Part shown: positions 31,662-58,433 of the stretch, in pieces
Position numbering within the stretch: position 1 is the first letter of the stretch
Layout of the letters: each line of letters begins with the position of its first letter
Source: a virus
Lineage: Duplodnaviria; Heunggongvirae; Uroviricota; Caudoviricetes
IMG/VR virus record: IMGVR_UViG_3300042889_001305
DNA length: 64,000 nt
Reading direction: 5' to 3' (one strand)
Translations under genes and position numbers: made by a program
The notes under the pieces: model-generated
Seen by the model: the letters and a program-made list of their open reading frames with translations, nothing else
The model's database searches: none
Told to the model about the DNA's origin: nothing

Positions 31662-31664
31662 AAC

Positions 31665-36413: not shown

Positions 36414-36417
36414 ATTG

Positions 36418-37056: not shown

Positions 37057-37630
37057 TTTTATCTCTATTTGAAAGTATTGGTTGTGCTACGGGCCATTCA
37101 ACATTAAATCGTTTATCGTTAAACACTATTGTTTTTTGTTTATTCTCATCGTTATATTCACCTTCATATGCCATTTTGTAAAAAAAGATAGAATTATCCT
37201 CCATCACATAATGACCATTAGCAAACATTGGTGGAATTAGAACTTGAGTACCAGTTTCCGGTGAAATTATAAAAGATTCCCATTTACCATAAGTTGGTGA
37301 GTTTGGTCTAACATCCATTACAACCAAATATATACGACCATGCAGACAACTTACTAATTTCCAAGTCTTTTCATCATAGTGCATTCCTCTCAATACACCT
37401 ACTTTTGATTTTGAGAACCTATCGTGTTTAAATTCTAACCCATTGTTGCGTTCAGCGGCGGGCAACAAACGGTCATAATACTCTGAGTGATAAGTTGTAG
37501 AGATTGAACCTCTATATTCGTAATACGTGGATGGTTGTACGATTTTTATCTCTGGTAATACCAATCCATTGTAATAGTGAAAATCATTCCACTCTCGTTC
37601 TTTGTAAAATATACTACGTCCTGTTGCCAT
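37046..37630 (-). CDS. rmlC: dTDP-4-dehydrorhamnose 3,5-epimerase (RmlC family)
   Basis: SKVGVLRGMHY, KLVSCLHG, DVRPNSPTYGKW and PPMFANGH motifs. Confidence 0.85.
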   Translation of the reverse strand: MATGRSIFYKEREWNDFHYYNGLVLPEIKIVQPSTYYEYRGSISTTYHSEYYDRLLPAAERNNGLEFKHDRFSKSKVGVLRGMHYDEKTWKLVSCLHGRIYLVVMDVRPNSPTYGKWESFIISPETGTQVLIPPMFANGHYVMEDNSIFFYKMAYEGEYNDENKQKTIVFNDKRFNVEWPVAQPILSNRDKNGN

Positions 37631-42247: not shown

Positions 42248-43687
42248 TTAAAGTTTTACATTTATCAACTTTGCTTTCGGTGCTAAATTTTCAATATTAA
42301 TTAACTCATATTTTAATTGAGCAATTCCATCTAATTTATAATCCCATTTACCTTGTTGCATCTGTAAAACGTATCTTTTTTCATTTCGTGCCGTAGTTTC
42401 TCCCTTTGCCCACTTATCTACTCCACCTACTTTAATTAAACCTTCATCTTGATGTGGTAAACATTTCAATCTACCAGCAATTCGATGTGGTATTATAGTA
42501 TATGGTATTTTTATCTCCTCTATTTTGTTTTCACAATTATATGCTATACCATTATTATCATTACCACTTTTATCAGTTACAATTCCATCTTCAAAATCAT
42601 AATGTAAAATTAAATCGGCATTAATAGGTATATTTGGTATTTGTTCTACTTCGCCTTTTGATAATGCTCTGTCCCACATTTTAACTTCTCCTATATCACC
42701 TTTGAACCACTTACTAACATCATCTGCTGCAACTGAAGTGGTTGTTCCTAAATAATAATCAACCATACCATAACGTTTTAACATTCCTGCAAATTGTTGT
42801 GGAGAATGAGTACCAGTTCCGTGTCTTGCATCAGATTCTTTTCCATTCATATAAAAATGAATATTATTATCATCAACTACAAGTGTAACCCATGTCCATT
42901 GGTTTTCATATCGTTTCATCCATTGATATAAATGTTCTCTTTGGTTATTCCAAAGTTGTGCAGTGTATGCTCTACTATTATTATAACTCAATCCGTAATC
43001 ATAACCTGGTCTGCGTAGTATTGGATATTCACAAAATCTTCTTTCAGTATCACCTACTAACCAAATTGGAACTTTTTCCTCTTGTTGGTGTGCACGAACT
43101 AATATTGAAATTGTATGAGAACGTGATGTTAAATTTCTTAAACTTCTTGTTGTAGGAATATGAACATATGAACTTTTACCATCAAACGATAAAAAATGTT
43201 TAGGGGTTGATGGGTAATTCATATATGAATTGTTTGCATATCCTTCTAATATACATCTCCAAAATAGGTCATCATCTTCCATACCCCAATCCCAATAATC
43301 GTTTGAATATCCGTTGGTGCGTTCCACTTGTTCCTTTGAAAAAATGACTGCTCCACCAAAATACTCTTCGTATTTCAACTTGTAATCCATTTGAGAGATA
43401 TTTGTAGCGATGTGTATTGGGTGTTTGTCTGGAAATGAGTAATCACATCCCTCTTCAGGTATCATATCAATATCATGCCAAACTATATAATCACACCCAT
43501 CTTCAAATGCGTGTTTTGCTGCAACGTTTTTCATTGCACCCCTATTGAATAATTTATCATCAACTTGATGCCCAAAATAAATACAATAATCAATACCTTG
43601 TTCTTCAAGATACTTTCCTACTGTTGGGATAAACTCTTTTAAATGAGATTCTCTATTTCTATAAGGTACACATACTCCTAATTTCAT
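42248..43687 (-). CDS. GT7 (beta-1,4-galactosyltransferase-like) glycosyltransferase with inserted LamG domain
   Basis: VPYRNR, FNRG, HDID, YFGG, NGYSNDYWDWGMEDDDL; LamG insert; C-terminal LKCLPH...GIAQLKY. Confidence 0.85.
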   Translation of the reverse strand: MKLGVCVPYRNRESHLKEFIPTVGKYLEEQGIDYCIYFGHQVDDKLFNRGAMKNVAAKHAFEDGCDYIVWHDIDMIPEEGCDYSFPDKHPIHIATNISQMDYKLKYEEYFGGAVIFSKEQVERTNGYSNDYWDWGMEDDDLFWRCILEGYANNSYMNYPSTPKHFLSFDGKSSYVHIPTTRSLRNLTSRSHTISILVRAHQQEEKVPIWLVGDTERRFCEYPILRRPGYDYGLSYNNSRAYTAQLWNNQREHLYQWMKRYENQWTWVTLVVDDNNIHFYMNGKESDARHGTGTHSPQQFAGMLKRYGMVDYYLGTTTSVAADDVSKWFKGDIGEVKMWDRALSKGEVEQIPNIPINADLILHYDFEDGIVTDKSGNDNNGIAYNCENKIEEIKIPYTIIPHRIAGRLKCLPHQDEGLIKVGGVDKWAKGETTARNEKRYVLQMQQGKWDYKLDGIAQLKYELINIENLAPKAKLINVKL

Positions 43688-45150
43688 TATATATCTACTT
43701 TTATATGTGATACTGATGGTGAAATTACTTTATTTTCTAATTCAGTATATCGCAATGTATTTAATCCATCAATATGATAATCCACAATACCAGTTCGTAC
43801 TTTATTATAATATTTTAATTGATTTTTTCTAGTTTCATCGTGTACCCAACGATTACCAATTGAAGAATTTGATTTATGTTTTAAAGATTTAAATTTACCA
43901 TTTCTTCTATATGGTTTTGGTAAAAATGTATTAAATGATTGTGATAATTTTTCAATACTAACATTATTTAATTTAGCCTGATATTCTCCAACCAAATCTA
44001 CACACTTTATATTATTTGATAATTCAGGTAGTAATTGAAAATATAAAAACTCTGATGATTTAAAGTTACCAAAATTTCTAATTTTTGGTTTTACTTTATT
44101 TTTACATATTTCTATGATTTCGTTTGGTTCTAATGCACTATCATACATTTCAACATTAGCTATATTACCATAAAAGAAATCTTTATTAGTATTCTTACCA
44201 TTTGCTGCACCTATATAAATATTCTTACTTGATAAGTCTAATATTTCAGCATCCATTTTAACACTATCAATAAGATTACCATCTAAATAAAAATATAACA
44301 TATTAGTATCTTTAAATACCATAGTTAAGTGAACCCAACGTTCTCCTAATATTTCAGTTGTTATTGAGTATGGGTTTTTATTTTTATCAAACGTTTGACA
44401 GAAAAATCTACGAAACGAATTATAAAAAATACCAATATTATATCCCGGTATTGATATTATTGGATATTCATCGTAATCTTTGTTTCGATTTATTTGCACG
44501 TCTACAGGTTTTACCATTACTGATAATGTAAAATCATTTGATAGATACGATGGTGTTTTTGCTTGTAATTCTATATAAGAATTATTACCATCAAATTTAA
44601 ATGTTTCAAATATTTCAACATCACAATTATCTGAATCTTCAACATCCAATTCTAAATCAGATTCTAAACATCTTATTAATAAATCATCATCTTCAAATCC
44701 CCATCCTAAGTATTCGTTTGAATATCCATTTATTTTTTCAAAATCTGCTTTATTAAAAAGAGTAACTCCTCCAAAATAATCAAAAAATGAAATTTCATAA
44801 TCATTTTCTTGTAAATGAGTTGCTAGGTGTAGTGGTTTATCAGTATATGAATAATCTACGTTAATTGGTAACATATCTACATCGTGAAATACAAAATAAT
44901 CACAATTATGATTGCATGCAATTTTATAACCTACATTTAATAGTTTACCACGATTAAATGGTTTGTCATCATTTTGTTCGATAACAAAAATTTGGTAGGT
45001 ATAATTAGTCAGATATTTTTCCATATGTTTTAAAAACCTATTGAGTTGGGTTTCTCTATTACGATATGGAACAATAACCGCTAGTTTATGCTGTTGGTGT
45101 ATCACCTTCTGTTTCATTTGTTTCAATTTCTGGTTCGGTTCTTTCTGCAT
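43687..45150 (-). CDS. GT7 glycosyltransferase with inserted LamG domain (start uncertain)
   Basis: VPYRNR, FNRGKLLN, FHDVD, FGGV, INGYSNEYLGWGFEDDDL; LamG insert; SLKH...GLNTLRY. Confidence 0.85.
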   Translation of the reverse strand: MQKEPNQKLKQMKQKVIHQQHKLAVIVPYRNRETQLNRFLKHMEKYLTNYTYQIFVIEQNDDKPFNRGKLLNVGYKIACNHNCDYFVFHDVDMLPINVDYSYTDKPLHLATHLQENDYEISFFDYFGGVTLFNKADFEKINGYSNEYLGWGFEDDDLLIRCLESDLELDVEDSDNCDVEIFETFKFDGNNSYIELQAKTPSYLSNDFTLSVMVKPVDVQINRNKDYDEYPIISIPGYNIGIFYNSFRRFFCQTFDKNKNPYSITTEILGERWVHLTMVFKDTNMLYFYLDGNLIDSVKMDAEILDLSSKNIYIGAANGKNTNKDFFYGNIANVEMYDSALEPNEIIEICKNKVKPKIRNFGNFKSSEFLYFQLLPELSNNIKCVDLVGEYQAKLNNVSIEKLSQSFNTFLPKPYRRNGKFKSLKHKSNSSIGNRWVHDETRKNQLKYYNKVRTGIVDYHIDGLNTLRYTELENKVISPSVSHIKVDI

Positions 45151-45382
45151 CTCTTGCCGGTCTATTTACTGAACCTACTGTTTTAGCTTTTGCAATCATA
45201 TAAAATTCATTTAAATACCATTCAATCCTTTCAGACCAAACATCTACTTCTAATGCATAAACCCAGTCGTTCATATCTTCCAATGTATCAGCAATACGTT
45301 CTAATGCTTTAGTACGTCTTTCTTCCAAATTTACGGATTCGCTTTTTGCCGTTTCGTTTCCTTTAATTAATTCCTTTGCCAT
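45086..45382 (-). CDS. small acidic hypothetical protein
   Basis: 98-aa ORF between two GT7 genes; overlaps the ORF-track start of the next gene. Confidence 0.6.
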   Translation of the reverse strand: MAKELIKGNETAKSESVNLEERRTKALERIADTLEDMNDWVYALEVDVWSERIEWYLNEFYMIAKAKTVGSVNRPARDAERTEPEIETNETEGDTPTA

Positions 45383-45407
45383 TTTTGTTTTGTTTTTTTT
45401 AAATTTA

Positions 45408-46895
45408 TTAAGTTACAATTCTTAGTAATGTATACCCATCTTTCATTTCTGAATTTAAGATTGTATATTTTATATTAGATAATCCTATTTTTTTAAAATC
45501 TATTTTATCAGTTAACGCCTCATTAAAAAATATATCTGCATTTTCCTCAACATCTGGGTCATATCTATAATATTTTTGTATAATATTATCATCTCCTACG
45601 TGTATTAGTGATTTATACGTTCCATCTAATCTAGTTGGTAAAGATATCTCATCTAATAGATTTATAGTTTCATTGAATATTGAATATTTACCTTCTACCT
45701 TTACGTGATTTCCAGCTTTACCTTTGTCTAATTTAAGTTCTGCAATACCACTAACATTATATGCGGTATCAAATCTAAAAATATTAGTTGGTATCAATCC
45801 TTCAATACTAGCAAGTTTATCCAAATATGAAATACCATCATAATATAATTTTTTAAGTTGTTCATCCGTTAATGTATCACTAAATGTAATTATATCTGCT
45901 AATTGGATTGCTGATTGTGAATCTGAAATTTTAATACATCTATCTGAATAATTAAAGGTTTCAAATTTACCTAATTTTTTTTCTTGTACTTTTTTATTGT
46001 TCAATACAAGTTTAATTTTATTATTAGGTTTATCATAAATTAAAACTGCGTTATTCCACTTATCTTTATTGTATTCAATACAAACATCAAAATGGTGTTC
46101 GGTATTACTCCAAATTTGTCCATTTAAATATCGACTACCAACTTCATTTTCAGATAAAAATAATCCAGTATCTGGTCCATCAAATGCAAATAAGTTTATT
46201 TTATGCATTACCTCCGATATATCTTTAAACCATAATGATATTGTAAAAGATGAATCAGTAAATCCTTGCATTAAGGAATTCTGTGGTCCGTATAATCGAG
46301 TTTCTTTTGGTAAATCAATTCCTTTGATTGTATGGGTTTTATTAATGTTTGATATCTCAACATTTTCAATTCTATATGGTAACACATCCCACAAATCATA
46401 ATATGAATATACTTGTTGTGCATCATAATATTGTTCTAAATATACTCCTGCTTTTTCCAATCGCATTAGTAAATCTAAATCTTCAAATCCATATCCCCAA
46501 TACTCATTAGAGTATCCGTTAGCCATTTCAAAATCTTCCCTATTAATTAATACAACTCCGCCAAAATATTGTGGGTAAGGTAATTTATTATTGTGTGCTT
46601 CTACGTTTGTTGCAAGGTGAGTCGGAACTGCTGGATAATTATAATCACACGAATCATTTATCGGTAACATATCAATATCATGAAAACAAAAATATGTGTA
46701 TTCTTTTGGTATTTCGTTTATTACCGCGTTACATAACTTACCATAATTAAATGGTCTATCATCTGCTTGTTCTGCTATAAAAATAGTATAATCAATTCCT
46801 TTATTTGCAAGGAATCTATTCATGTGTGGTATAAAGACATTTAAATGTGCTTGTCTATCACGATATGGTACTATGATTGCTAATTTATCTATCAT
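45408..46895 (-). CDS. GT7 glycosyltransferase with inserted LamG domain
   Basis: VPYRDR, FNYGKL, FHDID, YFGGV, NGYSNEYWGYGFEDLDL; LamG insert; SLIH...GLSNIKY. Confidence 0.85.
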   Translation of the reverse strand: MIDKLAIIVPYRDRQAHLNVFIPHMNRFLANKGIDYTIFIAEQADDRPFNYGKLCNAVINEIPKEYTYFCFHDIDMLPINDSCDYNYPAVPTHLATNVEAHNNKLPYPQYFGGVVLINREDFEMANGYSNEYWGYGFEDLDLLMRLEKAGVYLEQYYDAQQVYSYYDLWDVLPYRIENVEISNINKTHTIKGIDLPKETRLYGPQNSLMQGFTDSSFTISLWFKDISEVMHKINLFAFDGPDTGLFLSENEVGSRYLNGQIWSNTEHHFDVCIEYNKDKWNNAVLIYDKPNNKIKLVLNNKKVQEKKLGKFETFNYSDRCIKISDSQSAIQLADIITFSDTLTDEQLKKLYYDGISYLDKLASIEGLIPTNIFRFDTAYNVSGIAELKLDKGKAGNHVKVEGKYSIFNETINLLDEISLPTRLDGTYKSLIHVGDDNIIQKYYRYDPDVEENADIFFNEALTDKIDFKKIGLSNIKYTILNSEMKDGYTLLRIVT

Positions 46896-47746
46896 ATTTT
46901 AATTATAATTCTAGTTAATCTATCCCATTTAATGTAATCAAAATGATTATTTGTATTCATCTTTTCAAACATAAATTTATCGTTATTTATATCAATTTTA
47001 AAATCATTCCATTGAATTGCGTTATACATTAATTCATATTCAGTTGAAAACGCGTATTCTTTTTTAATATCAGCAACCGCCTTAATTCTATCTACACAAG
47101 TACTATCCCATTTGAAATGATGTACTTGTATTAATCCTTCACCATCTCCAATTGGGTAACGTTTTGGATGAGATTCTCCCCAACTATTTGTTCCATCCTC
47201 AAACTCAGCGTAATGTTGGCCGGATGATATTTTAATAAACCCTTTCATAATACAAACCTTATTTGGACAAGCCCCACTCATTGGATATCTAAAAAATCCA
47301 GCAAGTGGGAATTGTGTCCAAATATTTGTATGTTCATTTATCTGAGGAAACTCTCCATTTTCTCCTATCCTGTCAATAAACCCACCTGTAACAAATTCCC
47401 AATTATTTTCTTCACAATCAGAAATTAATTCTCTAATTGGTTTTGGATAAATGTGAAACTCATCGTCATCTGAAACTACCCACCAATCATTGGGGTGTAA
47501 TAATTTTGTTTCGTTATATAATTGTGTAACATATTCCCAATTAAATTTTTCTTTTATTTCTCGTCTAACAATTTTTGCTTTAGGAAATTCTTTTACAATC
47601 TCATAAACAATATCATATGTGCTAAACTCATCCCATTCATATACAACAACATATATTTCATCAACTAAATCATTATAGTGATTTAACATATGACGTAGAG
47701 TATTTGTTCTACTTCCTGTTACTGTAACTAATCTAATTTTTTGCAT
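46892..47746 (-). CDS. GT-A fold (GT2-like) glycosyltransferase
   Basis: WWVVSDDDEF (DxD), PNKV and HHFKW motifs. Confidence 0.7.
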   Translation of the reverse strand: MQKIRLVTVTGSRTNTLRHMLNHYNDLVDEIYVVVYEWDEFSTYDIVYEIVKEFPKAKIVRREIKEKFNWEYVTQLYNETKLLHPNDWWVVSDDDEFHIYPKPIRELISDCEENNWEFVTGGFIDRIGENGEFPQINEHTNIWTQFPLAGFFRYPMSGACPNKVCIMKGFIKISSGQHYAEFEDGTNSWGESHPKRYPIGDGEGLIQVHHFKWDSTCVDRIKAVADIKKEYAFSTEYELMYNAIQWNDFKIDINNDKFMFEKMNTNNHFDYIKWDRLTRIIIKI

Positions 47747-48519
47747 CTCTGAATAAATGTTAACCCCGTAGAAGTTGGTTTGTTTCTTAATATCCCGTTA
47801 TTAAAAAAATTAAATATTTCCCAATTGCCGGTTTCTTTTAATTCTTTTATTAATTTAGATGGGCCAGATGAAAACTCATGAAAGTCATTTTTGGGTTTTA
47901 CATCATCCGTAACAATTAATTCCTTTTCAAATGATACATCGGTATCGTGAATTGATATTATACCATAAGGTGAAAGAAGTTGTGAATATAATTCAAAATC
48001 ATTTTTTACATCTTCATAGGAATGACCTGCATCTATATGTAGATAATCAATTTTAATATCTTCTTTAACAAAATAATTATAAAATGCGTTTTCAGTAGTA
48101 TCTATGATAAATCTACAAGGAAAATTAGTTCTAAAAAAAGAATTTTCAGATTCCCAATCGGTATGACCACCGATTCCATTTGAAGCATCTACTAAAATTG
48201 TAGTACCACAATCACCCCACTCCATCATTTTATTTCCACTAAATATTTGTTGGTCGTGTAAATCAATTCTAGCTTGTGACATTAATCGCGGAATAAATCC
48301 ACCACCACTCCCCAAGCATACACATGTTTTTGCTCTGAGGTATTGGATTGTTGCATAAATTAATAATCCATCCCCAATATGTAAATCAGTAGCTCCATGT
48401 GACCATCGATATGCAACGGGTTGGTATTCAAAATATTCATCACCCTTAGTGTCTATTTTTTTAGTTCTATTATTGGTAAAAAAATCTTTTAAAATATTAT
48501 AGTTGAGAATACTGCCCAT
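47728..48519 (-). CDS. class I SAM-dependent methyltransferase (Methyltransf_24-like)
   Basis: VCLGSGGG, IDYLHIDAGHSYE and GIISIHD motifs. Confidence 0.8.
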   Translation of the reverse strand: MGSILNYNILKDFFTNNRTKKIDTKGDEYFEYQPVAYRWSHGATDLHIGDGLLIYATIQYLRAKTCVCLGSGGGFIPRLMSQARIDLHDQQIFSGNKMMEWGDCGTTILVDASNGIGGHTDWESENSFFRTNFPCRFIIDTTENAFYNYFVKEDIKIDYLHIDAGHSYEDVKNDFELYSQLLSPYGIISIHDTDVSFEKELIVTDDVKPKNDFHEFSSGPSKLIKELKETGNWEIFNFFNNGILRNKPTSTGLTFIQRCKKLD

Positions 48520-48700
48520 ACATTGAATAATGTGAATAAAATGCTAGAAATATGCTATTAGCTTAATAGTAATATAAGTTAATTAAGATAGTATAAGTGA
48601 TAGTGTAATAGCTTAGTAGCTTATCCCCCTACCCCCTTTAGTATATAAATATATAAAAATATACCAAACGATAAAAAAACTGAAAAATAAATATTTGGAA

Positions 48701-49738
48701 TTATCCTAAAATTGCTGTACGGACTTTATCAATCCATACGTCTTTATTATCAAATTTTATCATATATTCTTTAAGATTTTTGATGTTTGCAACCCTCTCT
48801 TCATGTGAATCTTTGAGGATTTGTTTAACACATTCATCAAATTCATTTTTGGTTGAAACCCTATATTTGTATTCAACCTCCGGTGCCCAATCTTTATTTA
48901 TTATTGGTAATTTACCATAATCTACTGCTTGAAATATTGAATATCCAAATGGTTCTTTAAAATACGCTGCGTGAAATATACCAAAATTTTTCAACATAAA
49001 AAAATGATGATGATTAACATCCCATTGAAAAACTTCCATTCCTTTTAATGAGTAGGTACTACTATCTTTAAGATTTTGTAAATCAAACTGATTTGTTAGA
49101 ATATATCCTTTATGGTCGTTTAACCAATGTACACATTTTCTTGATTCAATACGAGAAGCAAATCCAATTTTACCATTATCAACATGAGTAGTGAGCGGTA
49201 AGTTATTTTTAAACTCATAAAAATTTGGAACGTTATATGTGTAGTTTGGATGTTCATCAATCATAGTTGTGGTATTATTACCTACCCAAATTCTACGATT
49301 AAATGTTGCTAAATACTCATCATAAAAATCTGAATCAACTTGAGTATTATATTGTAACCTTTTTAGTTCCGGAATAGCAGAAATTGCGGCATCCATTTCT
49401 CTAGCATATGCATGAACAAAGACAGTTTTAAATTTATCTTCAAAATGCCAAATGTGCGGTCTTAAATGATAATGTGGATGTAATACATGAATTTCTTCAC
49501 ACTCATCTAACCACGTTCTAGTCTTTTCAGGGTCATCGTAGTGAAAATGATGAACCAATCCCTTCGGTAAGTATTTTGATTCGAATGAAGCGGGTCTCTT
49601 GGAGTCAATAAGTAATCTCCAATCCCTTTTGACAGGTAGTGTTGGCCAAACTAATTCTAAAAAATAATTAGTCCATATATCGGCCCCACCCATAACAGTA
49701 TTACCACATCCAGTTGTAACTAAAACCTTTATACTCAT
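48701..49738 (-). CDS. GT-B fold (GT4-like) glycosyltransferase
   Basis: GGADIW, FASRIESRK and EPFGYSIFQAVDYGKLPI motifs. Confidence 0.7.
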   Translation of the reverse strand: MSIKVLVTTGCGNTVMGGADIWTNYFLELVWPTLPVKRDWRLLIDSKRPASFESKYLPKGLVHHFHYDDPEKTRTWLDECEEIHVLHPHYHLRPHIWHFEDKFKTVFVHAYAREMDAAISAIPELKRLQYNTQVDSDFYDEYLATFNRRIWVGNNTTTMIDEHPNYTYNVPNFYEFKNNLPLTTHVDNGKIGFASRIESRKCVHWLNDHKGYILTNQFDLQNLKDSSTYSLKGMEVFQWDVNHHHFFMLKNFGIFHAAYFKEPFGYSIFQAVDYGKLPIINKDWAPEVEYKYRVSTKNEFDECVKQILKDSHEERVANIKNLKEYMIKFDNKDVWIDKVRTAILG

Positions 49739-49767
49739 AACATATATAAATATATAAAAATTAAATT

Positions 49768-50319
49768 TTAAACAAACGATTTTTCTCTAACCCACACAAT
49801 TGCAATCCACTTTGTACCACTAATAACTGGCAATCCTGCATGTAAACTTTCAAAATCTAAACTACCATCTATTTTTAGATTACTCCACATTAACATACGA
49901 CCAGTTTTTGGTGTTACTTTTATTTTTTTAGTAGGAAATTCGGTTTCACCCCCTTCAAATTCATCGTTTAAATAAAATAAACAAGATACCACCCTCTGAC
50001 CACCTGATTTCATAGTAGTATCGTAATAATCAGTATTTGGATGGAAAAAATCATGATGTGTTTTATATTCACCACCAACGTTATATTTTACAATATGTAT
50101 TTGTTCTTGATTTTCAATTGGAAGTCCTGATTTACTTGAAATTATTTTTTTTATTTTTGTTGTTAATTCTGTTTTTGAATGAATCCACGTATTTTCAGCA
50201 ACCCTATAATTTTCAATTGGAGTTCCTAATGTAGAAGCACTTATCATATTTGCAGAACCCATTTCAATTAGTTCTTTACATTCTGCTTCAGATATTTCAT
50301 AATCAATTATTGCTATCAT
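49768..50319 (-). CDS. prolyl 4-hydroxylase-like 2OG-Fe(II) dioxygenase
   Basis: QIHIVKYNVGGEYKTHHDFF, RVVSCLFYLN...GGETEFP and HAGLPVISGTKW (HxD...H...K). Confidence 0.9.
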   Translation of the reverse strand: MIAIIDYEISEAECKELIEMGSANMISASTLGTPIENYRVAENTWIHSKTELTTKIKKIISSKSGLPIENQEQIHIVKYNVGGEYKTHHDFFHPNTDYYDTTMKSGGQRVVSCLFYLNDEFEGGETEFPTKKIKVTPKTGRMLMWSNLKIDGSLDFESLHAGLPVISGTKWIAIVWVREKSFV

Positions 50320-50322
50320 AAC

Positions 50323-51180
50323 TTATTTTTTACAAGTTGTACATTCTTTATAAACTTCATTTACCCATTCTAAAGTAGTTCTTTCAGTTCCACCATAATC
50401 TTTTAAACCAGTAACAAAATCCATATTTGGATTGAATTTACTCCAATTACATAATTCTCTATAAGAACTATTATAATTTGGAATATATTTATGCCAAATT
50501 ATATTTTTTCTAATTGCAAATACATCATAACCACTTTTAAATAGTAAAAGGGAATATATTTCTTGTTCTTTAGTTGGGTTGTAATATTCGTTTACTTTTA
50601 ATATATTTACAATTTCACCACTACCAAATAAGTTACCTCCTGATATATTCATCACTTTTTCATAACCATCAATTGGGTGTCTCATACAATGTGGGGGAAT
50701 AAATTCAGGTGTCCACGTCGGTGCATTAGATGTATATATTGTGGCAACGTTTCGTTTACTATATACATCATATGTTTCATTAAATTCAAAAATCTGTGGA
50801 AATACACTAATAACTCCCTTTGATGGTATTTCACTTAATTGATTAATATATTCATCATCCCACCCTATCAAAAATCTAGAATGAGAATCTACACATAAAA
50901 AATAATCTTCATTATTATATAAATTTTCCATTATTAAATTCCTAGCCCATCCACATCCTTGTGCATCAGAAGCTAGTATTTGCATAAATTTTACATTTAA
51001 ATAAAATAGATGGTTATTAATTAAATCTGTTATTCTTTTTTGTTCTACCTCAGTATCTTGCAAACACACTCCAATAAATACATTATTTGGATTATTCGCT
51101 TTATTAAAACAATCTATTATAGTGTTAACAACATCAAAATCTTTATATGAAGCTATACTTACAAATATCGTTTTATTCAT
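50323..51180 (-). CDS. GT60-like UDP-GlcNAc:hydroxyproline/Thr polypeptide GlcNAc transferase (Skp1 Gnt1-like)
   Basis: TIFVSIASYKD, VFIGVCLQ, GCGWARN, YFLCVDSHSRF..GWD and GGNLFG motifs. Confidence 0.8.
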   Translation of the reverse strand: MNKTIFVSIASYKDFDVVNTIIDCFNKANNPNNVFIGVCLQDTEVEQKRITDLINNHLFYLNVKFMQILASDAQGCGWARNLIMENLYNNEDYFLCVDSHSRFLIGWDDEYINQLSEIPSKGVISVFPQIFEFNETYDVYSKRNVATIYTSNAPTWTPEFIPPHCMRHPIDGYEKVMNISGGNLFGSGEIVNILKVNEYYNPTKEQEIYSLLLFKSGYDVFAIRKNIIWHKYIPNYNSSYRELCNWSKFNPNMDFVTGLKDYGGTERTTLEWVNEVYKECTTCKK

Positions 51181-51189
51181 AATTATTTA

Positions 51190-52809
51190 TTATTCTATTT
51201 GTTTTACTTCTGCTCGGTTATGTACTAATATACCACTGCCAAAGTATACGTCATCATCTTCAATATTAACACTAACAGTTTGACAAGTTTCATTAATGAA
51301 TTCAATGTCGCGTATTCTAACCCATATATCATTGGTATTAAATAAATAATCACCCACTAATAAATTATAAACCTTACAAAACTTATATTCATTACCTCTT
51401 TTTATAAACACAGGATGTTCATATGTTATTCGTATTGATTTATTTATAATATAATAATTGGAATAAGACCCATGCATTAAAGTTACAACCCTTGCTGTTG
51501 ATGGTTCAAACCAAAATTTAGTATCAGAAAAATTAACCCAATTTTTTTCAATATCCTTATCTAATCCTTCTATTGATAAACTACTAAGAATATCTCCCAA
51601 TACTAAATCTTCAATTAATTTATTACTACCATCAGCCATTTTAATTTCAGTACCATAAAGAAAACACGGGTCTTCTTCCGGTGGAGGAGGTGGTGGTGGA
51701 GTTGGTGTTGGTGGAGGCGGAGGTGGTGCCGGACAACTACTTACTGTATTAATAAACCCATTACCTTCTACATAGTAAACTGAAGTTCCGTTTGAATAAT
51801 ATCCATCGGCTGCATTCGAACTACCATCACTAGCTGATTTTAATACACATTGTGCAATAAGTGATGAACAAGTACTCCATACTTCCGTAGTTACACCCAT
51901 AGCACATGCCAACGAATCATCTCCCGCATTATATCCAAAATTAAATGAATAATATGTTGGAGGTGCCGGCGTAGGCGGAGGTGGAGTTGGTGGTGCAACA
52001 TAACATGCAACAGCACTTATCCCATATCTAACACCCGCTCCAGTTGTAGCGTTATAAATATAAACACCATAACTTCCACCATAATCACCTACACCTGTAA
52101 AAGTGTACGATGTTGCACTACCAATTGATAACGTAGCCAATGCTGCAGGACTAGCAGTATCCACACTATATCCAACGTAACAATCACTTCCACCATTTGC
52201 TATATTTTCTATAAATATTCGACCACTTGCACCCGTTGTTCCACTACAATCTTGTGTAACAGTAGCAGTTACCGCAGGTGGTGGAGTTGGTGGTGGTGGA
52301 GTTGGTGGTGGTGGAGTTGGACACGTACATCCATTAATGCCAGTTGCACGAAAAAGATGAGTATCAGTTGGAGTGTATGATGTTCCTACTGCTATATAAC
52401 AAATTTCATTTACATCATCGTATATATTTGTTCCGTAATTATAACTTCCAAAAATATGTCCCTGTGCTACCCCACCCGTACCACATTGTGATAAATATGT
52501 ATATACCTGAGGAGCCGGTGTTGGAGGTGGTGGAGTTGGAGGAGCCGGAGTTGGTGGAGCCGGTGTTGGTGGAGCCGGAGTTGGAGGTGCCGGTGTTGGA
52601 GGTGCTGGAGTTGGAGGTGCAGGTGTTGGAGGAGCTGGAGTTGGAGGAGTTCCTGTTCCTCTTCCAAGAAACTCATCCATACCATGTGGTTTTGTAGGAA
52701 TCCCATATGCTATAGCAGCCGTATCCATATCAACTTGAGTACCTGATGCAATATTTCTATCGGTATTAAATAAATTAAATGATATTTCTCCTGTAGACGG
52801 TAATGCCAT
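51190..52809 (-). CDS. Pro/Thr-rich, Cys-rich virion-type protein with C-terminal Hint (intein-like) domain
   Basis: Four Pro-rich blocks; Hint domain CFLYGT...ILVHN at 51217-51666. Confidence 0.8.
   Translation of the reverse strand: MALPSTGEISFNLFNTDRNIASGTQVDMDTAAIAYGIPTKPHGMDEFLGRGTGTPPTPAPPTPAPPTPAPPTPAPPTPAPPTPAPPTPAPPTPPPPTPAPQVYTYLSQCGTGGVAQGHIFGSYNYGTNIYDDVNEICYIAVGTSYTPTDTHLFRATGINGCTCPTPPPPTPPPPTPPPAVTATVTQDCSGTTGASGRIFIENIANGGSDCYVGYSVDTASPAALATLSIGSATSYTFTGVGDYGGSYGVYIYNATTGAGVRYGISAVACYVAPPTPPPPTPAPPTYYSFNFGYNAGDDSLACAMGVTTEVWSTCSSLIAQCVLKSASDGSSNAADGYYSNGTSVYYVEGNGFINTVSSCPAPPPPPPTPTPPPPPPPEEDPCFLYGTEIKMADGSNKLIEDLVLGDILSSLSIEGLDKDIEKNWVNFSDTKFWFEPSTARVVTLMHGSYSNYYIINKSIRITYEHPVFIKRGNEYKFCKVYNLLVGDYLFNTNDIWVRIRDIEFINETCQTVSVNIEDDDVYFGSGILVHNRAEVKQIE
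52511..52645 (-). repeat. 9 x 15-bp coding repeat: 8 PTPAP + 1 PTPPP
   Basis: Read directly from the sequence; units differ mostly at synonymous positions. Confidence 0.95.
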
Positions 52810-55800
52810 TACTTATTCTCTTTTAACTCGTTAATTTCTTTTTTCAATTCCTTAATACACTCAACTAATAAGGGTACAATTTTTTCGTATTTGATAGCAA
52901 GGTATCCATCTACTCTTTTTACCACAACCTCGGGTAAAATTGTTTCTACTTGTTGAGCAATTAAACCTACATCGTGTTTTCTTATAAAGTAATTATCTTC
53001 GCCCTTACCACCACTTTCTTTTTGAATATATTCATCTGTCCAATCAAATTCTACCCCATCTAATTTTTCTATTTTATCAAGAGCTTTTCCTATTGGTATA
53101 ATATTTTCTTTTAATCTTTTATCTGAAGTAGCGAATGCAGTTATATTTCCGGTAGCAGTAATACCACCACCAACTGCAACGAAATTAGTATTTGCCTCAT
53201 TTCTTTCAACTTTAAGATATCTATCAGTACTTGCTACAACTTGGAAACCACCCGCAACTAATTCAGTTTTCGATACTTGTTGTGATACCGATATAGTACT
53301 TATCTTTGGAGTGTTATAAGAGACACTAACATCAAAAGTTGCAACTGTTCCTGAATCACGATACGCAACACATACTCCATTTTTAATATAAGGTACAAAA
53401 TAATATGTTGTACTTGGTGATAATGAAATAGCCCCGGTTAAAGTACCAAACGCATCACCGCTGGCCCAACCAAATTGCTCTTCTATGATAGTGTTACCAT
53501 ATCCAAATACCTCTGAAAAATTTATTGCTTTCGATATATCTAAAACTTCATTAGCTATACCTGTACCACCCGCTCTAACGGAAATCCCTATGGTATAGTA
53601 GTGTTGTACATAACTTATATAAGGAGTATTTCCCCCAAATGGTTGATTACCCGGTTCTAAATATACACTATAATTTGAAAGTACCCCATGCCATAAATTT
53701 GTACTTATGGAATAAATTCCAGTAGTCCCAGCACTTGTAGTAAAACTAGGTGATGAACCAGGAGTCCATTCTAAATATGTTGGGTCCATATTAGCAGATA
53801 TTTGTGTAACATATTGGGAAGTGTTACCAGCATATTGTTGCTGAGTATTATAATTTGTTACTGAAGTTGGACTTATTGTTACACTACCGGCACTTAAACT
53901 ACTCAATGTAGAGGCGTTACTTATATCTACCCTTAATGCAGTACCCTCATAAATTTCAATAGCAGGTCTTGCTGCGTTTAATCTTAATTTTTCAGTTGAA
54001 TCTCGTATACTTGTAGGAGTTACAGTCCAACCCCCAATGTTACCGGTGGTAGCCGAAACTCTACCAGTAATATCCGCACCGGTTGCAAACAATATACCGG
54101 CATTAGTTACCCTAAACGGGGCATTACCAAATGTAGCATTTCCTAACCACATTCCATTACTATCTGCTTTAAAAATAGTATTTGAACTACCAATTGAAAT
54201 TGCTCCGGTACTATCTAATATTGCTGCTCCACCTGTTAAAGTGGTTGCACCCAATGTCCACCCACCAATAGTACCAGAAGTTGCTTTTAAAACTCCCGCG
54301 GGTGTTACACTAAATTCTGCACTTCCAAATGTTTCATTACCTAAATAAATTCCACTAGTATCCGCAGTAAATACACTTTCACCACTACCAATTCGAATAG
54401 AACCATTAAACGTTCCTGTTGCTGCGGATAATGCACCACTAAACGTTCCTCCACCATTAACAGTTAAAGATGTTCCATCCCATAATAGGGAATTACTAGC
54501 AGATTTTAAAGACAATCTATATACGGGTGAACTACTAACATTAACCACCCCCATAAAAATACCATTTACATTATACCCTTGTGAACCGGCTGATGAACTT
54601 TGTCCGATAGATATGTACGGATAGGCACTGCCACCTGCTAAAGTAATATTTGCTGCTGCCATTGCACCATTCGAATTCGTACCAATGTTTAAAGTGTTTT
54701 GAACAAACGAATCTTCAAATATACCTATTTTAGCTGCAACAAAGAAATCTTGTGCACCTAACGATATCCAACCCGTTTGTGCTGCTTGATGTGGTGCACC
54801 ATTTATTACGTTTCCTGTTGCTGAAAGATGTTGTCTAGTAGTTGCGTAGTATGTATTATACGGAGCGTTTCCATTTGTACTCCATAAGACAGTATCTCTT
54901 CTACCAGTCCCCGTTGTTAACCCATCTGAAAATTGATAGGTTCTACCACTTGTCCAAACTCCGGTATGAACCACACCAGGACCTGTTTGACCCGTTGCAC
55001 CATCATCTCCATCAGTTCCATCAGTTCCATCAGTTCCATCAGTTCCATCAGTTCCGTTAATTGTTACATTTACTTTATGTTCTTTAGTTATTGTACCGGT
55101 AGTTCCTTCCGAATTTACATATGTTATAGTAATAGCTACAGTCGTACCTGCATCGGTAGTTGGTGTGGTTGGTGTTATAGTTGTAGTTCCCGTTCCACCT
55201 GTTAATGAAATTTGATATGTATTTATTGCACCACCAGTTGAATATGTATAATTTGTTCCACCTTCGTTTACACTAATTGTAAATGTAGCAGGTGTAGCAT
55301 ATACCCCAGCGTTTGTTTTTGTAATCGATTGACCTTCATTTGATAACGTTGCAATTACTACCGGTGCAGCTTTTTTAACTTTTGATAAACTTAATGTATC
55401 AGTTAGAGTTCTACTTGTCCCTTCAGAATCCGTAACTACTGCTGATATTGCTATTGTTGTAGAATTTGTTCCCGCTGCTAAAGTTTTTCCATTTAACGTT
55501 ACCAACCCACTTGCAGCAGTAGTTGATATTGATGTAATATCTGAAGATGTTGCAGTTAACGATGTTATTGTTTTTGTTGTAGTAGAACCATTATAAGTTT
55601 CCCTTACAACTATTGTTGAATTTGCAAATGAATCAATTTGTGCACCGGTTGATTTAGCAGTTACACTTTGGTCTTTTGGTGTTGCAGAAATTGCAAGAAC
55701 CGGAGCAGCTTTTTTATTTTTTGTATAAGTTGCAGTTTTTATAACACTTGTGGTATCTCCGGCACCATCTTTATAATTAATTGTAATATCTAAAGAACCA

Positions 55801-58379
55801 GAATCTGCTGCAAGTGCGGTTATACCATATACGTTTGTAGATGGATTTGTAATATTTGGAGTACAACCTATTCCGCTTAAATTAGTTATTGCAAATGTAT
55901 TATTAGCTCTAAGATTATCATTATCATCATCAAATGTAATAGTCTCATTTCCCACTTTTACGTTTACCGAACCACTTGTAAAAACAAAATCACCATTTGC
56001 TACAACTCCAGTTGAAAGTGCAGGCAAGGATGTATTATCATTTGTTAATGTAACTGATAATCCATCTAATATTTTTACAGGAGTTATGGTTACCGCATCT
56101 GAAAATTTATTTCCAAATTGGTCAGACCCTGTGAATGAATATGTAGTAGAACCACTTAAAAATGGATATGCAGAACCAGCTAATGTGAATAACGTTACAC
56201 CTGAAGTAGCATCAGTTGCTCCAATAGTTAAAGGTGGTTTTAAACTACCAGAATTTACTTCTAATGTACCAGTAGTTGATGCTAAATTTTTTCTTTTAGC
56301 CTCTATTGTAATTACTTGGCCTGATGGATTTAAGGATAAATCAGTTGCCTTATAAATAAATTGGTTAGCGTTTGAAGTTGTAAATAGACCGGGTGCATTT
56401 TCTCCATCTTCAAATCTATAAATGGTTTCGAACTCATTTAACCCATCACATGATGCAGTATAAGTTATAGAACCAATTAATACTGATGGTACACTACCAC
56501 TAAAATTAGCAATAGTTAAACTTGCACCACCATCTCCTGCGTTTGTTAAAAGACCAGGATATGTTCCCGCATAACTAGCAGGAACTATATAATTACCATC
56601 TGTATCAAACGCAGCAGATGCATAAGTAACCGAACCTGTTAAATTAGTTCTACTAATTGAGAATCCAACTTGTTGAAAAGCAGGATTACCAAACGAACCA
56701 CTCGTAAAACGAAATGCAGTTCTATCTGATTCAAATGTTAAGATTTTTGAGGTAGTTGTAAAACTGTTACCACCATTAAATGTTTTTGAAGTTTTTACAT
56801 CAACGGGAATATAATTGTTATTTATATCGTAAAATTCAAATTTGAAATCATATGTCTCACTCGCAAGTTTACGAGGAATATCTTGTATTAAAGTAAATTC
56901 ATCAGGTGAAAACGAAGTTTCTTGTGCGTTTTGTAAACTCACATTTGCCAAATACCAATCATCACCCGCAAACTCAAATACTAATTTAGCATCTCCAGTC
57001 TTAGTAGCCTTTACATTTTGAGTTACGTTTTGTTTTGTAGTATATATCGCCGAATTAGTAACATTTACGATAGTTTGTTGTGGATAATCCGAACCACTAA
57101 AATATGCTTTTAAAGTTTTAGTCGAATCATTTGAACCACTTAGGAGTGTTTTGAATGAAAGGGTATACTCAACTCCCTCTGTCAGAGATAGAGATTGAGA
57201 TGTAATAAAAAGGGCAGTATTATCATAATTTGAACCACTATAATCTACCTTAACCGATGCGTTTAATTTATCTACATTAATTGTAATTGGATGTGCAGTT
57301 GAACCACTTACCCAATAATTTTTTATATTGGTATCCGTAAACTGACCATAGGATAATTCCGTATTAGCAGTTGTTGTTATATCTTTTAGTATTTCTGATG
57401 ATTCTAATTTAGTATCTTGTATGAATTGGTAATCACCAACTTCGTTTCTAGATTTTCTATAAACCTTTACTCTCGCTACATCACCAACAAATGTTTTTAA
57501 ATCTGATAATTGAATTTTAGCAAAAGAACCCGTCAACGCCGAGTTGATAATCGTCTGACCTTCAATATGGTCAAATGTAGTTGTGTAGGCAGTAGCAGGA
57601 AAATTTGAAACGGATGATGATACCGCATATGGAATATCTACAAATATTTCTTTGTTATTTAAGACCTCTCTTATAGTTGCCGAATACCCTAATGATGGTA
57701 TTGTTATGGTATTTTCATCAACGGATGATGTCCAATTTGAACCATCGGTAATTTTTAATTTATATAAAGTTCCGGCTGTCCAAGTTCGAATATCAGTACC
57801 ATAAACTGGTTGTTGTGGGATACCTTCAACCAATCCCGTTTGAGTAACTGATGGGGTTGTTATATTAAAAATGGGTTTATTTATCTCATCAATTGTAATT
57901 TTTGGTCTTTTATAAAACCTAACAATAGTTTCATTCGAAAGATTTTTATTTACATTAAACGTTCTCTCCCACTTAATATTATAGATACCACTCCACTCAG
58001 CAGGAATATCTCTAACTACTCCGGTCTCATCAATATAGGTTTTTAATTCACCTAATACAGTAATTTTTCCTAAACCAATAGGGGTATCCTCATAGACATG
58101 AACTGATACAATTTTTGAAATTCCTTCGTAGTATTCTGGTATACCATTACCCGGCTCGTAATAAATCGGTGTGCCGGTAACATCTAATATCTCAATTTTA
58201 ATTTCAGTTGTTTCCTTTAAATGTTCAGAACCCTCTATAAGAAACCCATTCTTACCACCGGTGAAGGTATCTTTAAATTCGGTAATTCTAAAATATTCAG
58301 ACGTTCTAACTTGGTCATTTATAAATGTACCAAAGTTTGATAAGTTTTGATACGAAGCGAACGATTTAATTATTGCCAT
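52809..58379 (-). CDS. 1856-aa tail/baseplate fibre protein with C-terminal peptidase S74 intramolecular chaperone
   Basis: Ser/Thr/Gly-rich; short collagen-like GTD repeat; SDKRLKENI...GLIAQQVE..LPE...Y..IVPLLVECIKEL C-terminus. Confidence 0.8.
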   Translation of the reverse strand: MAIIKSFASYQNLSNFGTFINDQVRTSEYFRITEFKDTFTGGKNGFLIEGSEHLKETTEIKIEILDVTGTPIYYEPGNGIPEYYEGISKIVSVHVYEDTPIGLGKITVLGELKTYIDETGVVRDIPAEWSGIYNIKWERTFNVNKNLSNETIVRFYKRPKITIDEINKPIFNITTPSVTQTGLVEGIPQQPVYGTDIRTWTAGTLYKLKITDGSNWTSSVDENTITIPSLGYSATIREVLNNKEIFVDIPYAVSSSVSNFPATAYTTTFDHIEGQTIINSALTGSFAKIQLSDLKTFVGDVARVKVYRKSRNEVGDYQFIQDTKLESSEILKDITTTANTELSYGQFTDTNIKNYWVSGSTAHPITINVDKLNASVKVDYSGSNYDNTALFITSQSLSLTEGVEYTLSFKTLLSGSNDSTKTLKAYFSGSDYPQQTIVNVTNSAIYTTKQNVTQNVKATKTGDAKLVFEFAGDDWYLANVSLQNAQETSFSPDEFTLIQDIPRKLASETYDFKFEFYDINNNYIPVDVKTSKTFNGGNSFTTTSKILTFESDRTAFRFTSGSFGNPAFQQVGFSISRTNLTGSVTYASAAFDTDGNYIVPASYAGTYPGLLTNAGDGGASLTIANFSGSVPSVLIGSITYTASCDGLNEFETIYRFEDGENAPGLFTTSNANQFIYKATDLSLNPSGQVITIEAKRKNLASTTGTLEVNSGSLKPPLTIGATDATSGVTLFTLAGSAYPFLSGSTTYSFTGSDQFGNKFSDAVTITPVKILDGLSVTLTNDNTSLPALSTGVVANGDFVFTSGSVNVKVGNETITFDDDNDNLRANNTFAITNLSGIGCTPNITNPSTNVYGITALAADSGSLDITINYKDGAGDTTSVIKTATYTKNKKAAPVLAISATPKDQSVTAKSTGAQIDSFANSTIVVRETYNGSTTTKTITSLTATSSDITSISTTAASGLVTLNGKTLAAGTNSTTIAISAVVTDSEGTSRTLTDTLSLSKVKKAAPVVIATLSNEGQSITKTNAGVYATPATFTISVNEGGTNYTYSTGGAINTYQISLTGGTGTTTITPTTPTTDAGTTVAITITYVNSEGTTGTITKEHKVNVTINGTDGTDGTDGTDGTDGDDGATGQTGPGVVHTGVWTSGRTYQFSDGLTTGTGRRDTVLWSTNGNAPYNTYYATTRQHLSATGNVINGAPHQAAQTGWISLGAQDFFVAAKIGIFEDSFVQNTLNIGTNSNGAMAAANITLAGGSAYPYISIGQSSSAGSQGYNVNGIFMGVVNVSSSPVYRLSLKSASNSLLWDGTSLTVNGGGTFSGALSAATGTFNGSIRIGSGESVFTADTSGIYLGNETFGSAEFSVTPAGVLKATSGTIGGWTLGATTLTGGAAILDSTGAISIGSSNTIFKADSNGMWLGNATFGNAPFRVTNAGILFATGADITGRVSATTGNIGGWTVTPTSIRDSTEKLRLNAARPAIEIYEGTALRVDISNASTLSSLSAGSVTISPTSVTNYNTQQQYAGNTSQYVTQISANMDPTYLEWTPGSSPSFTTSAGTTGIYSISTNLWHGVLSNYSVYLEPGNQPFGGNTPYISYVQHYYTIGISVRAGGTGIANEVLDISKAINFSEVFGYGNTIIEEQFGWASGDAFGTLTGAISLSPSTTYYFVPYIKNGVCVAYRDSGTVATFDVSVSYNTPKISTISVSQQVSKTELVAGGFQVVASTDRYLKVERNEANTNFVAVGGGITATGNITAFATSDKRLKENIIPIGKALDKIEKLDGVEFDWTDEYIQKESGGKGEDNYFIRKHDVGLIAQQVETILPEVVVKRVDGYLAIKYEKIVPLLVECIKELKKEINELKENK
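55009..55053 (-). repeat. 5 x 9-bp perfect tandem repeat (ccatcagtt) encoding a Gly-X-Y (TDG)5 linker
   Basis: Read directly from the sequence. Confidence 0.95.
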
Positions 58380-58433
58380 TGGAATCCTTTGTTATAGCAA
58401 TAAATATAAGTAAAAAAGATTGTATTATATTTA

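Follow-up and report, generated by a model that had tools for sequence, protein, structure and literature searches.

Can a bacteriophage make hydroxyproline-linked glycoproteins? The question is raised by a 64,000-nt stretch of tailed-phage DNA (IMG/VR record IMGVR_UViG_3300042889_001305; hereafter the window), in which a gene for a Pro/Thr-rich protein is followed by genes for a family GT60 glycosyltransferase (GT) and a prolyl 4-hydroxylase (P4H), at the start of a nine-gene region (42248-52809). Glycans linked to hydroxyproline (Hyp) are textbook features of eukaryotes, where they decorate plant and algal cell-wall proteins and the protist protein Skp1, and to our knowledge this chemistry has been described so far only in eukaryotes. 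Our comparisons support the view that P4H, GT60 and the Pro/Thr-rich protein form a co-conserved unit across unrelated phage lineages. As the trio travels together in unrelated phages, it appears that phages probably make plant-like hydroxyproline glycoproteins. With moderate confidence, we regard the trio as a self-contained cytoplasmic cassette that would hydroxylate and then glycosylate the linkers of the adjoining Pro-rich protein.

The domain identities and catalytic motifs of the trio, and the co-variation of its genes among phages, were observed directly. The trio and the parts of its Pro/Thr-rich protein are as follows, with the basis of each assignment in brackets.

51190..52809, minus strand: 539-amino-acid (aa) modular Pro/Thr-rich protein, proposed substrate (translation)
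52510..52653, minus strand: linker 1, residues 53-100, (PTPAP)n, with 29 Pro and 10 Thr (tandem repeat and composition)
52273..52317, minus strand: linker 2, residues 165-179 (TPPPPTPPPPTPPPA), with a Cys just before it (Pro-tract scan)
51952..51993, minus strand: linker 3, residues 273-286 (PPTPPPPTPAPPTY), with a Cys just before it (Pro-tract scan)
51667..51729, minus strand: linker 4, residues 361-381 (APPPPPPTPTPPPPPPPEEDP), abutting Cys382 of the Hint domain (Pro-tract scan)
51217..51666, minus strand: non-splicing Hint (intein-like) domain, residues 382-531 (motifs, weak Pfam matches, PDB profile search)
50323..51180, minus strand: 285-aa GT60-family GT-A glycosyltransferase, proposed initiating protein O-glycosyltransferase (Pfam PF11397)
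49768..50319, minus strand: 183-aa collagen-type P4H, a 2-oxoglutarate (2OG)/Fe(II) dioxygenase (Pfam PF13640, 2OG-FeII_Oxy_3)

By family, the 183-aa oxygenase is confirmed as a collagen-type P4H, for which C4 hydroxylation of peptidyl Pro is predicted. It matches PF13640 with an E value of 8e-18 (65.6 bits, cutoff 27). A phmmer search against the PDB aligned residues 2-181 with the P4H of B. anthracis (3itq/5hv0, E 4e-28) and also returned the enzymes of Chlamydomonas (2jig, 2e-24), human (C-P4H alpha-2, 7zsc, 3.5e-23) and the chlorovirus PBCV-1 (5c5t, 1e-15). The catalytic set, H88-H-D90, H160 and the 2OG-binding K170 located 10 residues after the distal His, aligns with the corresponding residues of 3itq. 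The oxygenase is thus similar over its entire length to characterised peptidyl-prolyl 4-hydroxylases, and it is not of the TET/JBP or AlkB types. Most phage P4Hs are fused to, or trailed by, a second domain of ~190 aa with an HxD...H-like motif that resembles another dioxygenase, as in L001 (9300-10406), L002 (12307-12804), L006 (7922-9100) and L119 (15655-16854); here and below, L-numbers denote loci fetched with their flanks, for instance by using GT60, the tail-fibre N-terminus or the muzzle-C protein as anchors. The window P4H has no such second domain, and L021 and L024 retain that domain alone.

The GT60 protein matches PF11397 (GlcNAc) with an E value of 3.5e-36 (125.8 bits, cutoff 21), and its DxH metal-binding motif (D98-S99-H100) and H230 are invariant across 18 homologues. 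Its AlphaFold2 (AF2) model, with a pLDDT of 91, has a Rossmann-like GT-A topology. The top fold match in Swiss-Prot is Q8T1C6, the Skp1-Hyp GlcNAc-transferase of Dictyostelium (Gnt1; E 4.9e-17, 22% identity), and the next group, at ~1e-9 and thus eight orders of magnitude behind, is that of the polypeptide GalNAc-transferases. In the fold search of the PDB, the mucin-type polypeptide GalNAc-transferases come out at the top. Both are protein O-glycosyltransferase families. As phmmer and profile searches against PDB sequences gave no match for GT60, the fold search alone was informative. Judged by its family, the enzyme would transfer alpha-GlcNAc from UDP-GlcNAc onto Hyp or Thr of a protein.

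The proposed substrate consists of an N-terminal module of ~50 aa, four Pro-rich linkers interspersed with three small Cys-containing modules, and the C-terminal Hint domain. It adjoins GT60 and is the only open reading frame (ORF) on either strand of the window with a Pro-rich tract by a criterion of 40% Pro. Its N-terminal module is common to the genes that occupy the same slot in relatives. Linker 1 is coded by a 15-nt array (52509-52649; 9.4 copies) with only 84% matches, and this imperfection indicates that the repeat is maintained at the peptide level. No signal peptide or transmembrane-like segment was found in the protein or in the enzymes, and membrane-like segments are absent from all nine proteins of the region. 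Therefore, any modification would be cytoplasmic, as in the Skp1 pathway. Each of the three small modules ends in a Cys immediately ahead of a linker. Such a Cys directly precedes nearly every Pro-rich linker (GCTCPTPP, VACYVAPP and SSCPAPP), including those of crAss-like loci (CNCAPTPT and TCVAPTP in L005-L033). The presence of a radical SAM/SPASM maturase between P4H and GT60 in the crAss-like cassettes hints at an additional, Cys-linked modification.

The initial annotation had made its proposal depend on the synteny of P4H, GT60 and a Pro-rich gene, and the trio proved to be co-conserved both in relatives of the phage and in unrelated crAss-like phages. Four relatives whose GT60 proteins are 64-75% identical to that of the window (L001, L002, L003 and L018) retain the same gene succession, from the fibre through the Pro-rich protein(s) and GT60 to P4H, with linkers that vary in sequence and length. 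In unrelated contigs recognised as crAss-like by the Pfam domains crAss_MUZ or crAss_MUZ_C, GT60 is found at 45-51% identity. There, the cassette consists of a two-domain P4H, a radical SAM/SPASM protein and GT60, beside proteins of 360-2050 aa with long (PT)n or (PS)n tracts. A P4H-like gene is present in the fetched flanks of 41 of 80 viral loci anchored on GT60, and nearly all loci whose GT60 is at least 33% identical carry P4H and linker ORFs within ~3 kb. In a survey of cellular genomes, each prokaryote species being represented by one genome, identity to the best GT60 relatives is only 26-34%, and a P4H lies within 6 kb in 2/80 loci. One of these two is on a contig that looks viral, from a single-cell assembly of Bacteroidetes. 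The coupling of P4H and GT60 is thus virus-specific. L206, a virus-like locus inside a Bacteroidetes single-cell assembly, is a possible lead to a host.

The slot downstream of the fibre gene was compared among near relatives selected by their fibre N-termini (72-98% identical), and five states were found. In the window, the slot holds the PTPAP and Hint protein together with P4H and GT60. In L119-121, a (PNVTPQVTPA)n and Hint protein is accompanied by a two-domain P4H, a GDSL-like gene, a gene of the Pfam family HPAT (Hyp O-arabinosyltransferase; PF23452, 41.7 bits in L119, cutoff 23.9) and a GT60-like gene. A poly-Pro protein and a small P4H-type oxygenase, with neither GT60 nor HPAT, are found in L117 and L123. 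L124, L125 and L152 encode the same N-terminal module with a BACON domain and are devoid of Pro linkers, P4H and GT60, and in L122 the slot gene, P4H and GT60 are all missing. P4H and linker genes are therefore gained and lost jointly over short evolutionary distances. Going by family assignments, the GT next to P4H is drawn from two families known to glycosylate Hyp, GT60 and HPAT, and the HPAT gene in the same slot of near relatives is an independent pointer to a hydroxyproline acceptor. Such a pattern would be expected of a cassette that first hydroxylates and then glycosylates the protein encoded next to it. A jackhmmer search of the window ORFs revealed no HPAT-like gene.

The slot has further occupants. 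In L124 (15538-17691), it codes for a 717-aa protein in which a BACON domain (E 9e-8) replaces the Pro-rich linkers, and as the N-terminal module is the same, the slot appears to encode swappable cargo on a common adaptor. In poly-Pro variants, proteins of the DUF6065 and DUF7796 families accompany the small P4H-type oxygenase (L117, 16920-17651; L123, 16954-17676; also L044 and L076). DUF6065 and the second dioxygenase-like domain are also found near distant GT60-like genes in other viral contigs, and the DUF6065 and DUF7796 proteins may belong to the same functional network.

Among the crAss-like relatives collected through the muzzle-C protein, all P4H carriers have PT-rich ORFs except L097, a short and incomplete contig, and both are missing from L108 and L112-116. 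On the 3' side of P4H, the slot is occupied by the radical SAM and GT60 genes, by an HPAT-like gene (L096 and L099) or by a GT of the Gly_transf_sug family (L098); L096 is assigned as HPAT-like only through 40% identity to the myovirus copy in L119. Altogether, 101 loci were found independently of either enzyme, of which 15 have both P4H and linkers, 79 have neither and seven are discordant. Four of the latter are truncated where the contig or the fetched piece stops (L097, L103, L118 and L169), and the other three represent one lineage with a distant GT60 (L109-111). The association of P4H with linkers over these loci yields a Fisher P of 3e-12, which is descriptive only, as the loci are related to one another. 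In L169, two PT-rich genes follow the fibre gene; the presence of a P4H was predicted before looking, and a PF13640 gene was found ~230 nt past the fetched end.

Other sugar-related genes accompany P4H in some loci. In L198 (G002:C1:4000-12400), from the same phage as L169, P4H is followed by a fusion of GT1 and Methyltransf_24 domains and a GT9 heptosyltransferase-like gene. Cytidylyltransferase and PfkB-kinase genes, resembling the two halves of HldE, are present as well, and this gene set suggests a heptose-containing decoration. Giant multi-GT proteins of 1205-1535 aa are encoded directly 3' of a two-domain P4H in L053 (5283-8900), L040 and L206 (4108-8712). That of L053 has 1205 aa and two GT60 domains, and it is followed by a 525-aa ORF. 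Xanthomonas phage XacN1 has a GT60-like gene, 24% identical to that of the window, with no P4H in its 8-kb flanks.

How might the cassette operate? The chemical steps, the acceptor residue, the sugar and the virion location described here are what we infer from the sequences. In the 539-aa protein, P4H would convert Pro residues of the (PTPAP)n and poly-Pro linkers to 4-hydroxyproline. GT60 would then add the first sugar to the linkers, by family probably an alpha-linked HexNAc from a UDP-sugar. Its most likely acceptor would be the new hydroxyl group of hydroxyproline, as in the Skp1 pathway. The product would be a stiff, protease-resistant, glycosylated stalk, and the 539-aa protein probably docks close to the tail fibre as an appendage, a location that we propose because the N-terminal module of ~50 aa is common to every slot variant. 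The position of the cassette within tail or muzzle modules in crAss-like phages would agree with a virion appendage. The cassette is presumably mobile between jumbo myoviruses and crAss-like phages, with an exchangeable GT beside P4H (GT60, HPAT-like or GT32-like).

Several points weigh against this proposal. Its whole support consists of homology and gene-neighbourhood statistics, and the metagenomic contigs are phylogenetically non-independent. PT linkers are common flexible spacers in proteins of aquatic phages and bacteria, and only the position of the gene and its conserved N-terminal module point to the putative virion location. In Microcystis phage Mel-JY01, a P4H 41% identical to that of the window stands in an unrelated context, with no adjoining Pro-rich or GT60 gene. 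P4H and GT60 occur without a Pro-rich ORF within 8 kb in fifteen viral loci, for example L053, and L109-111 have linkers and no detectable P4H; therefore, linker proteins are not an obligate or sole partner of the enzymes. Trypanosomatid and Dictyostelium GT60 enzymes glycosylate Thr and Ser too. Thr or Ser is present in all linkers associated with GT60 or HPAT-like genes, and the pure poly-Pro variants L117 and L123 have a P4H-type oxygenase with neither GT, so that Thr could be the acceptor. It is thus conceivable that GT60 directly glycosylates Thr and Ser of the PT linkers, as in mucins and in the manner of the GT60 polypeptide alpha-GlcNAc-transferases of Trypanosoma cruzi and Dictyostelium, with P4H acting independently, either to stiffen the polyproline-II helix or on another target, and that the glycoprotein is not Hyp-linked. 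The lead of mucin-type polypeptide GalNAc-transferases among the PDB fold matches also speaks for this possibility. Nevertheless, we consider it somewhat unlikely, as P4H and GT60 adjoin even without a nearby PT linker in loci of the L053 type, which suggests that the two enzymes depend on each other. Furthermore, among named proteins the Hyp-specific Gnt1 gives the best fold match, the same-slot substitute for GT60 belongs to the Hyp-specific HPAT family, and coupling to P4H is rare for bacterial GT60 relatives and common for viral ones.

The linker-free loci might also fit auxiliary genes that act on envelope polysaccharide or lipopolysaccharide (LPS) of the host, or on host proteins such as a Pro-containing translation factor, the adjacency of PT linkers being a by-product of a variable post-fibre region. 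The large sugar-nucleotide and GT island of the window, reminiscent of the 'LPS' clusters of cyanophages, and the occurrence of the downstream GT-B/GT7 block without the trio in L122 are in line with such a role. However, P4H and GT60 come from protein-modifying families, linker genes and P4H come and go together over short evolutionary distances, and among the nine proteins of the region there is no lipid-carrier priming transferase, flippase, polymerase or membrane segment, which makes a host target quite improbable. Modification of phage DNA, with the GTs decorating modified bases and the oxygenase acting on nucleic acid, appears highly improbable. The cluster of the T4 DNA alpha-glucosyltransferase (AGT) does lie near the 345-aa protein of the downstream block in a feature search, and some viruses are known to encode GTs that glycosylate DNA (Pyle et al. 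2024, cited in PMC12619734). Yet the alignment of the oxygenase is with peptidyl-prolyl 4-hydroxylases, not with TET/JBP or AlkB enzymes, and spans the entire protein, the Lys at +10 included. In addition, GT60 matches protein O-glycosyltransferases, and the cassette is found in tail or muzzle modules rather than in nucleotide-metabolism modules.

A cytoplasmic cassette that hydroxylates Pro-rich linkers and then glycosylates them would have its closest functional parallel in the Skp1 pathway of Dictyostelium and Toxoplasma, in which the P4H PhyA is followed by the GT60 alpha-GlcNAc-transferase Gnt1 and then by PgtA/AgtA or Glt1/Gat1. In both cases, P4H and GT60 occur as a pair of soluble enzymes, the P4H having no signal peptide, and further GTs are encoded nearby, and the phage GT60 fold is closest to that of Dictyostelium Gnt1, with the DxH metal motif kept. 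In contrast, we found no Skp1-like protein, and the presumed phage acceptor is a repetitive Pro/Thr linker where Skp1 has a single conserved Pro. The closest relatives of the phage P4H are the collagen-type, bacterial and algal P4Hs, GT60 is only 22% identical to Gnt1, and the cassette is encoded by a bacteriophage. It may therefore function like the Skp1 pathway without being a member of it. In the hydroxyproline-rich glycoprotein (extensin) pathway of plants and green algae, P4H is followed by the Hyp O-arabinosyltransferase HPAT (GT95). Common features are repetitive Pro-rich substrates, the match of the phage P4H to Chlamydomonas Cr-P4H-1 (the 2jig hit above) and the HPAT-like gene that adjoins P4H in L119-121 and in the crAss-like L096 and L099. 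Unlike that pathway, the window lacks an HPAT-like gene, the phage repeats are PTPAP or PT rather than Ser-Pro4, and the phage enzymes are soluble, whereas those of plants are Golgi-luminal and membrane-anchored.

The nearest viral precedents are found in giant viruses of eukaryotes. The P4H of PBCV-1 (A085R) acts on virus-encoded Pro-rich repeats, and Mimivirus encodes a collagen lysyl hydroxylase and glycosyltransferases (PMC9546862, PMC12279948). As in our phage, a virus-encoded hydroxylase, in Mimivirus with GTs, serves the virus's own repetitive structural proteins, and the PBCV-1 enzyme is a detectable homologue of the phage P4H. However, the hosts of these viruses are eukaryotes, no GT60 is linked to the PBCV-1 enzyme, and Mimivirus glycosylates collagen at hydroxylysine, not hydroxyproline. 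In mycobacteriophages, O-glycosylation of virions has been reported (Freeman et al. 2023, PMC10527164, cited in PMC12619734), and phage-encoded GTs likewise decorate the phage's own structural proteins. The GTs there belong to other families, the glycosylated residues are C-terminal ones in the subunits of the capsid and the tail tube, and no hydroxylase, Pro-rich linker or Hyp is involved. Full-text literature searches found no paper on a phage P4H with GT60, on phage HPAT or on phage Hyp glycosylation, and in a proteomic study of marine phages (PMC12014285), Hyp and glycans were outside the search.

If the cassette operates as proposed, phage virions can bear a glycan coat with an influence on adsorption and stability, on resistance to proteases and on attachment to particles or mucus. 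Mass spectrometry and structural annotation of phage fibres would then have overlooked Hyp and glycan modifications, and any account of how GT60 and GT95 evolved would have to take in bacterial viruses. Small soluble enzymes that work in the bacterial cytoplasm would also be attractive tools for the production of Hyp-glycopeptides in bacteria.

What the Hint domain contributes to the Pro-rich protein is a related question. Its motifs, Cys1 (Cys382, in CFLYG), a TYEH block and the terminal VHN531, are invariant in three homologues (window, L018 and L119). The Pfam matches are weak (Intein_splicing, 2e-4; Hom_end_hint, 1.3e-3; PT-HINT, 0.014), and a profile search of the PDB returned the TFIIB mini-intein (5o9j, E 5.4e-7), PI-SceI and the BIL domain 2lwy. 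An AF2 model built from a three-sequence alignment had a pLDDT of 37.7 and was discarded. The residue after the terminal HN is Arg in the window and L119 and Ala in L018, with 8-10 residues remaining (8 in the window). Since there is no Cys, Ser or Thr nucleophile at +1, this is expected to be an autoprocessing, BIL-like Hint domain that performs cleavage or transfer, not a splicing intein, and it probably self-cleaves at Cys382. It shares Cys1, TxxH, the terminal HN and the lack of a +1 nucleophile with BIL and Hedgehog-type domains, and differs in that it ends a Pro-rich, presumably glycosylated protein. Only some slot variants have it (window, L018 and L119-121). It is tempting to go further and to speculate that tailed phages own a mobile, plug-and-play Hyp O-glycosylation cassette (P4H, a GT60, HPAT/GT95-like or GT32-like enzyme and a Pro-rich stalk) that builds extensin- or mucin-like virion appendages, that the Hint thioester here ligates the stalk covalently to another molecule in the manner of Hedgehog and cholesterol, and that phages are a reservoir in the prokaryotic world, possibly the source, of the GT60 and GT95 families regarded as eukaryotic. 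Taken as a whole, we deem this extended scenario unlikely.

The genes that flank the trio are the following.

52809..58379, minus strand: tail fibre, 1856 aa, with a C-terminal Peptidase_S74 intramolecular chaperone (Pfam PF13884, E 4.8e-15)
48701..49738, minus strand: 345-aa probable GT-B-fold glycosyltransferase, previously called 'GT4', first gene of the downstream block (language-model features)
47728..48519, minus strand: 263-aa methyltransferase, Methyltransf_24 (Pfam, E 3.5e-10)
46892..47746, minus strand: 284-aa weakly GT2-like protein (PF13704, E 3.7e-4; 21.4 bits, under the cutoff of 27.5)
45408-46895, 43687-45150 and 42248-43687, minus strand: three paralogous GT7 (beta4GalT-like) enzymes, each with Glyco_transf_7N, Glyco_transf_7C and Laminin_G_3 (LamG) domains (Pfam)
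45086-45382, minus strand: 98-aa acidic ORF between two GT7 genes, kept in L122 and absent from the initial annotation (ORF)

In the direction of transcription, the order is fibre, Pro/Thr-rich Hint protein, GT60, P4H, 345-aa protein, methyltransferase, GT2-like protein and three GT7-LamG enzymes. All genes are on the minus strand, and the ORFs match the coordinates assigned initially. Among the identities proposed at that stage, Pfam and the PDB bear out those of the PTPAP/Hint protein, GT60, P4H, the methyltransferase and the three GT7-LamG enzymes, whereas 'GT4' and 'GT2' find weak support. The 345-aa protein has no Pfam match at E<=0.01, and a profile of four homologues gave none in the PDB. 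Its language-model (Atlas) features lie near GT4, GT1 and AGT clusters at 0.96-0.97, and it has a motif, EPFGYSIFQAVDYGKLPII, which we take to resemble the EX7E region of GT4 enzymes. Homology to the GT1 domain of the GT1-methyltransferase fusion in L198 was not detectable. The Laminin_G_3 match in 45408-46895 is under the Pfam cutoff (22.1 vs 27.6 bits).

The initial annotation had united the genes of the region in one complete pathway, an idea that our comparisons do not support. L122 and L124 keep the block without the trio, the fibre gene of L122 being directly followed by the GT-B-like gene, and L001 and L018 have the trio, with other GT2 genes, without the block. Thus, the block and the trio are two separable modules. 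The GT7 part of the block is kept in L122 and L003. A 471-aa twitch-domain radical SAM protein (window 40800-42215, minus strand; NCBIfam NF033640, 329 bits) is encoded right after the GT7 genes, and a radical SAM gene is likewise found 3' of the GT7 genes in L003. Further downstream lies a sugar-nucleotide island, ~14 kb in size, with its genes at 27988-40018 of the window (minus strand). It codes for three short-chain dehydrogenase/reductase (SDR) epimerase/dehydratases, an RmlC-like 3,5-epimerase, a radical SAM enzyme, a HAD phosphatase and two halves of a thiamine diphosphate (ThDP) enzyme (E1_dh-like and Transket_pyr-like), together with several ORFs that have no Pfam match. This island is probably a pathway to an unusual deoxy or branched sugar. 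We regard the downstream block and the island as a separate module, which may extend the glycan or serve another target.

The analysed stretch is part of a phage genome of ~229 kb, the length of the longest contig with the same GT60. The phage is a jumbo myovirus with T4-like head genes. The major capsid proteins of Microcystis phage Mel-JY01, Flavobacterium phage immuto and an uncultured 484-kb phage share 52-55% identity with the one encoded here. By megablast, the region matched nothing in the phage collection. Near-identical copies of the trio region (49768-52809) are present in metagenome runs from lake water, and at least 12 runs contain at least half of the sampled words; RNA runs were not among the matches listed in this search. 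The post-fibre genes are tightly packed, with intergenic gaps of -1 to 29 nt, and the fibre stop codon overlaps the start of the Pro-rich gene by 1 nt. The fibre N-terminus is kept in at least 138 viral contigs. The fibre has a short collagen-like (GTD)n stretch, which was ruled out as a P4H substrate because it contains a single Pro.

A motif, ATATTTAT, is found 28 nt upstream of the fibre ATG and 15 nt upstream of the GT-B-like ATG, a placement that fits the trio being an insertion co-transcribed with the fibre gene. A scan for sigma-70 promoters and terminators revealed no excess over shuffled sequences. Sites of the ATATTTAT / TATATTTAT motif lie at 58380-58408, 49739-49754 and 48652-48694, the last in the 181-nt gap ahead of the methyltransferase gene, and the motif also precedes several other window genes. 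It may be a phage promoter element. Finally, a very long protein whose N-terminus carries a cytidylyltransferase-like domain is encoded 3' of the glycosylation region (window 22888-27840, minus strand). The same protein is found immediately 3' of the trio in L001 (10513-13953) and L018 (11148-14045). These positions indicate that the glycosylation island is a variable insert between two conserved genes, those of the fibre and of this polyprotein.

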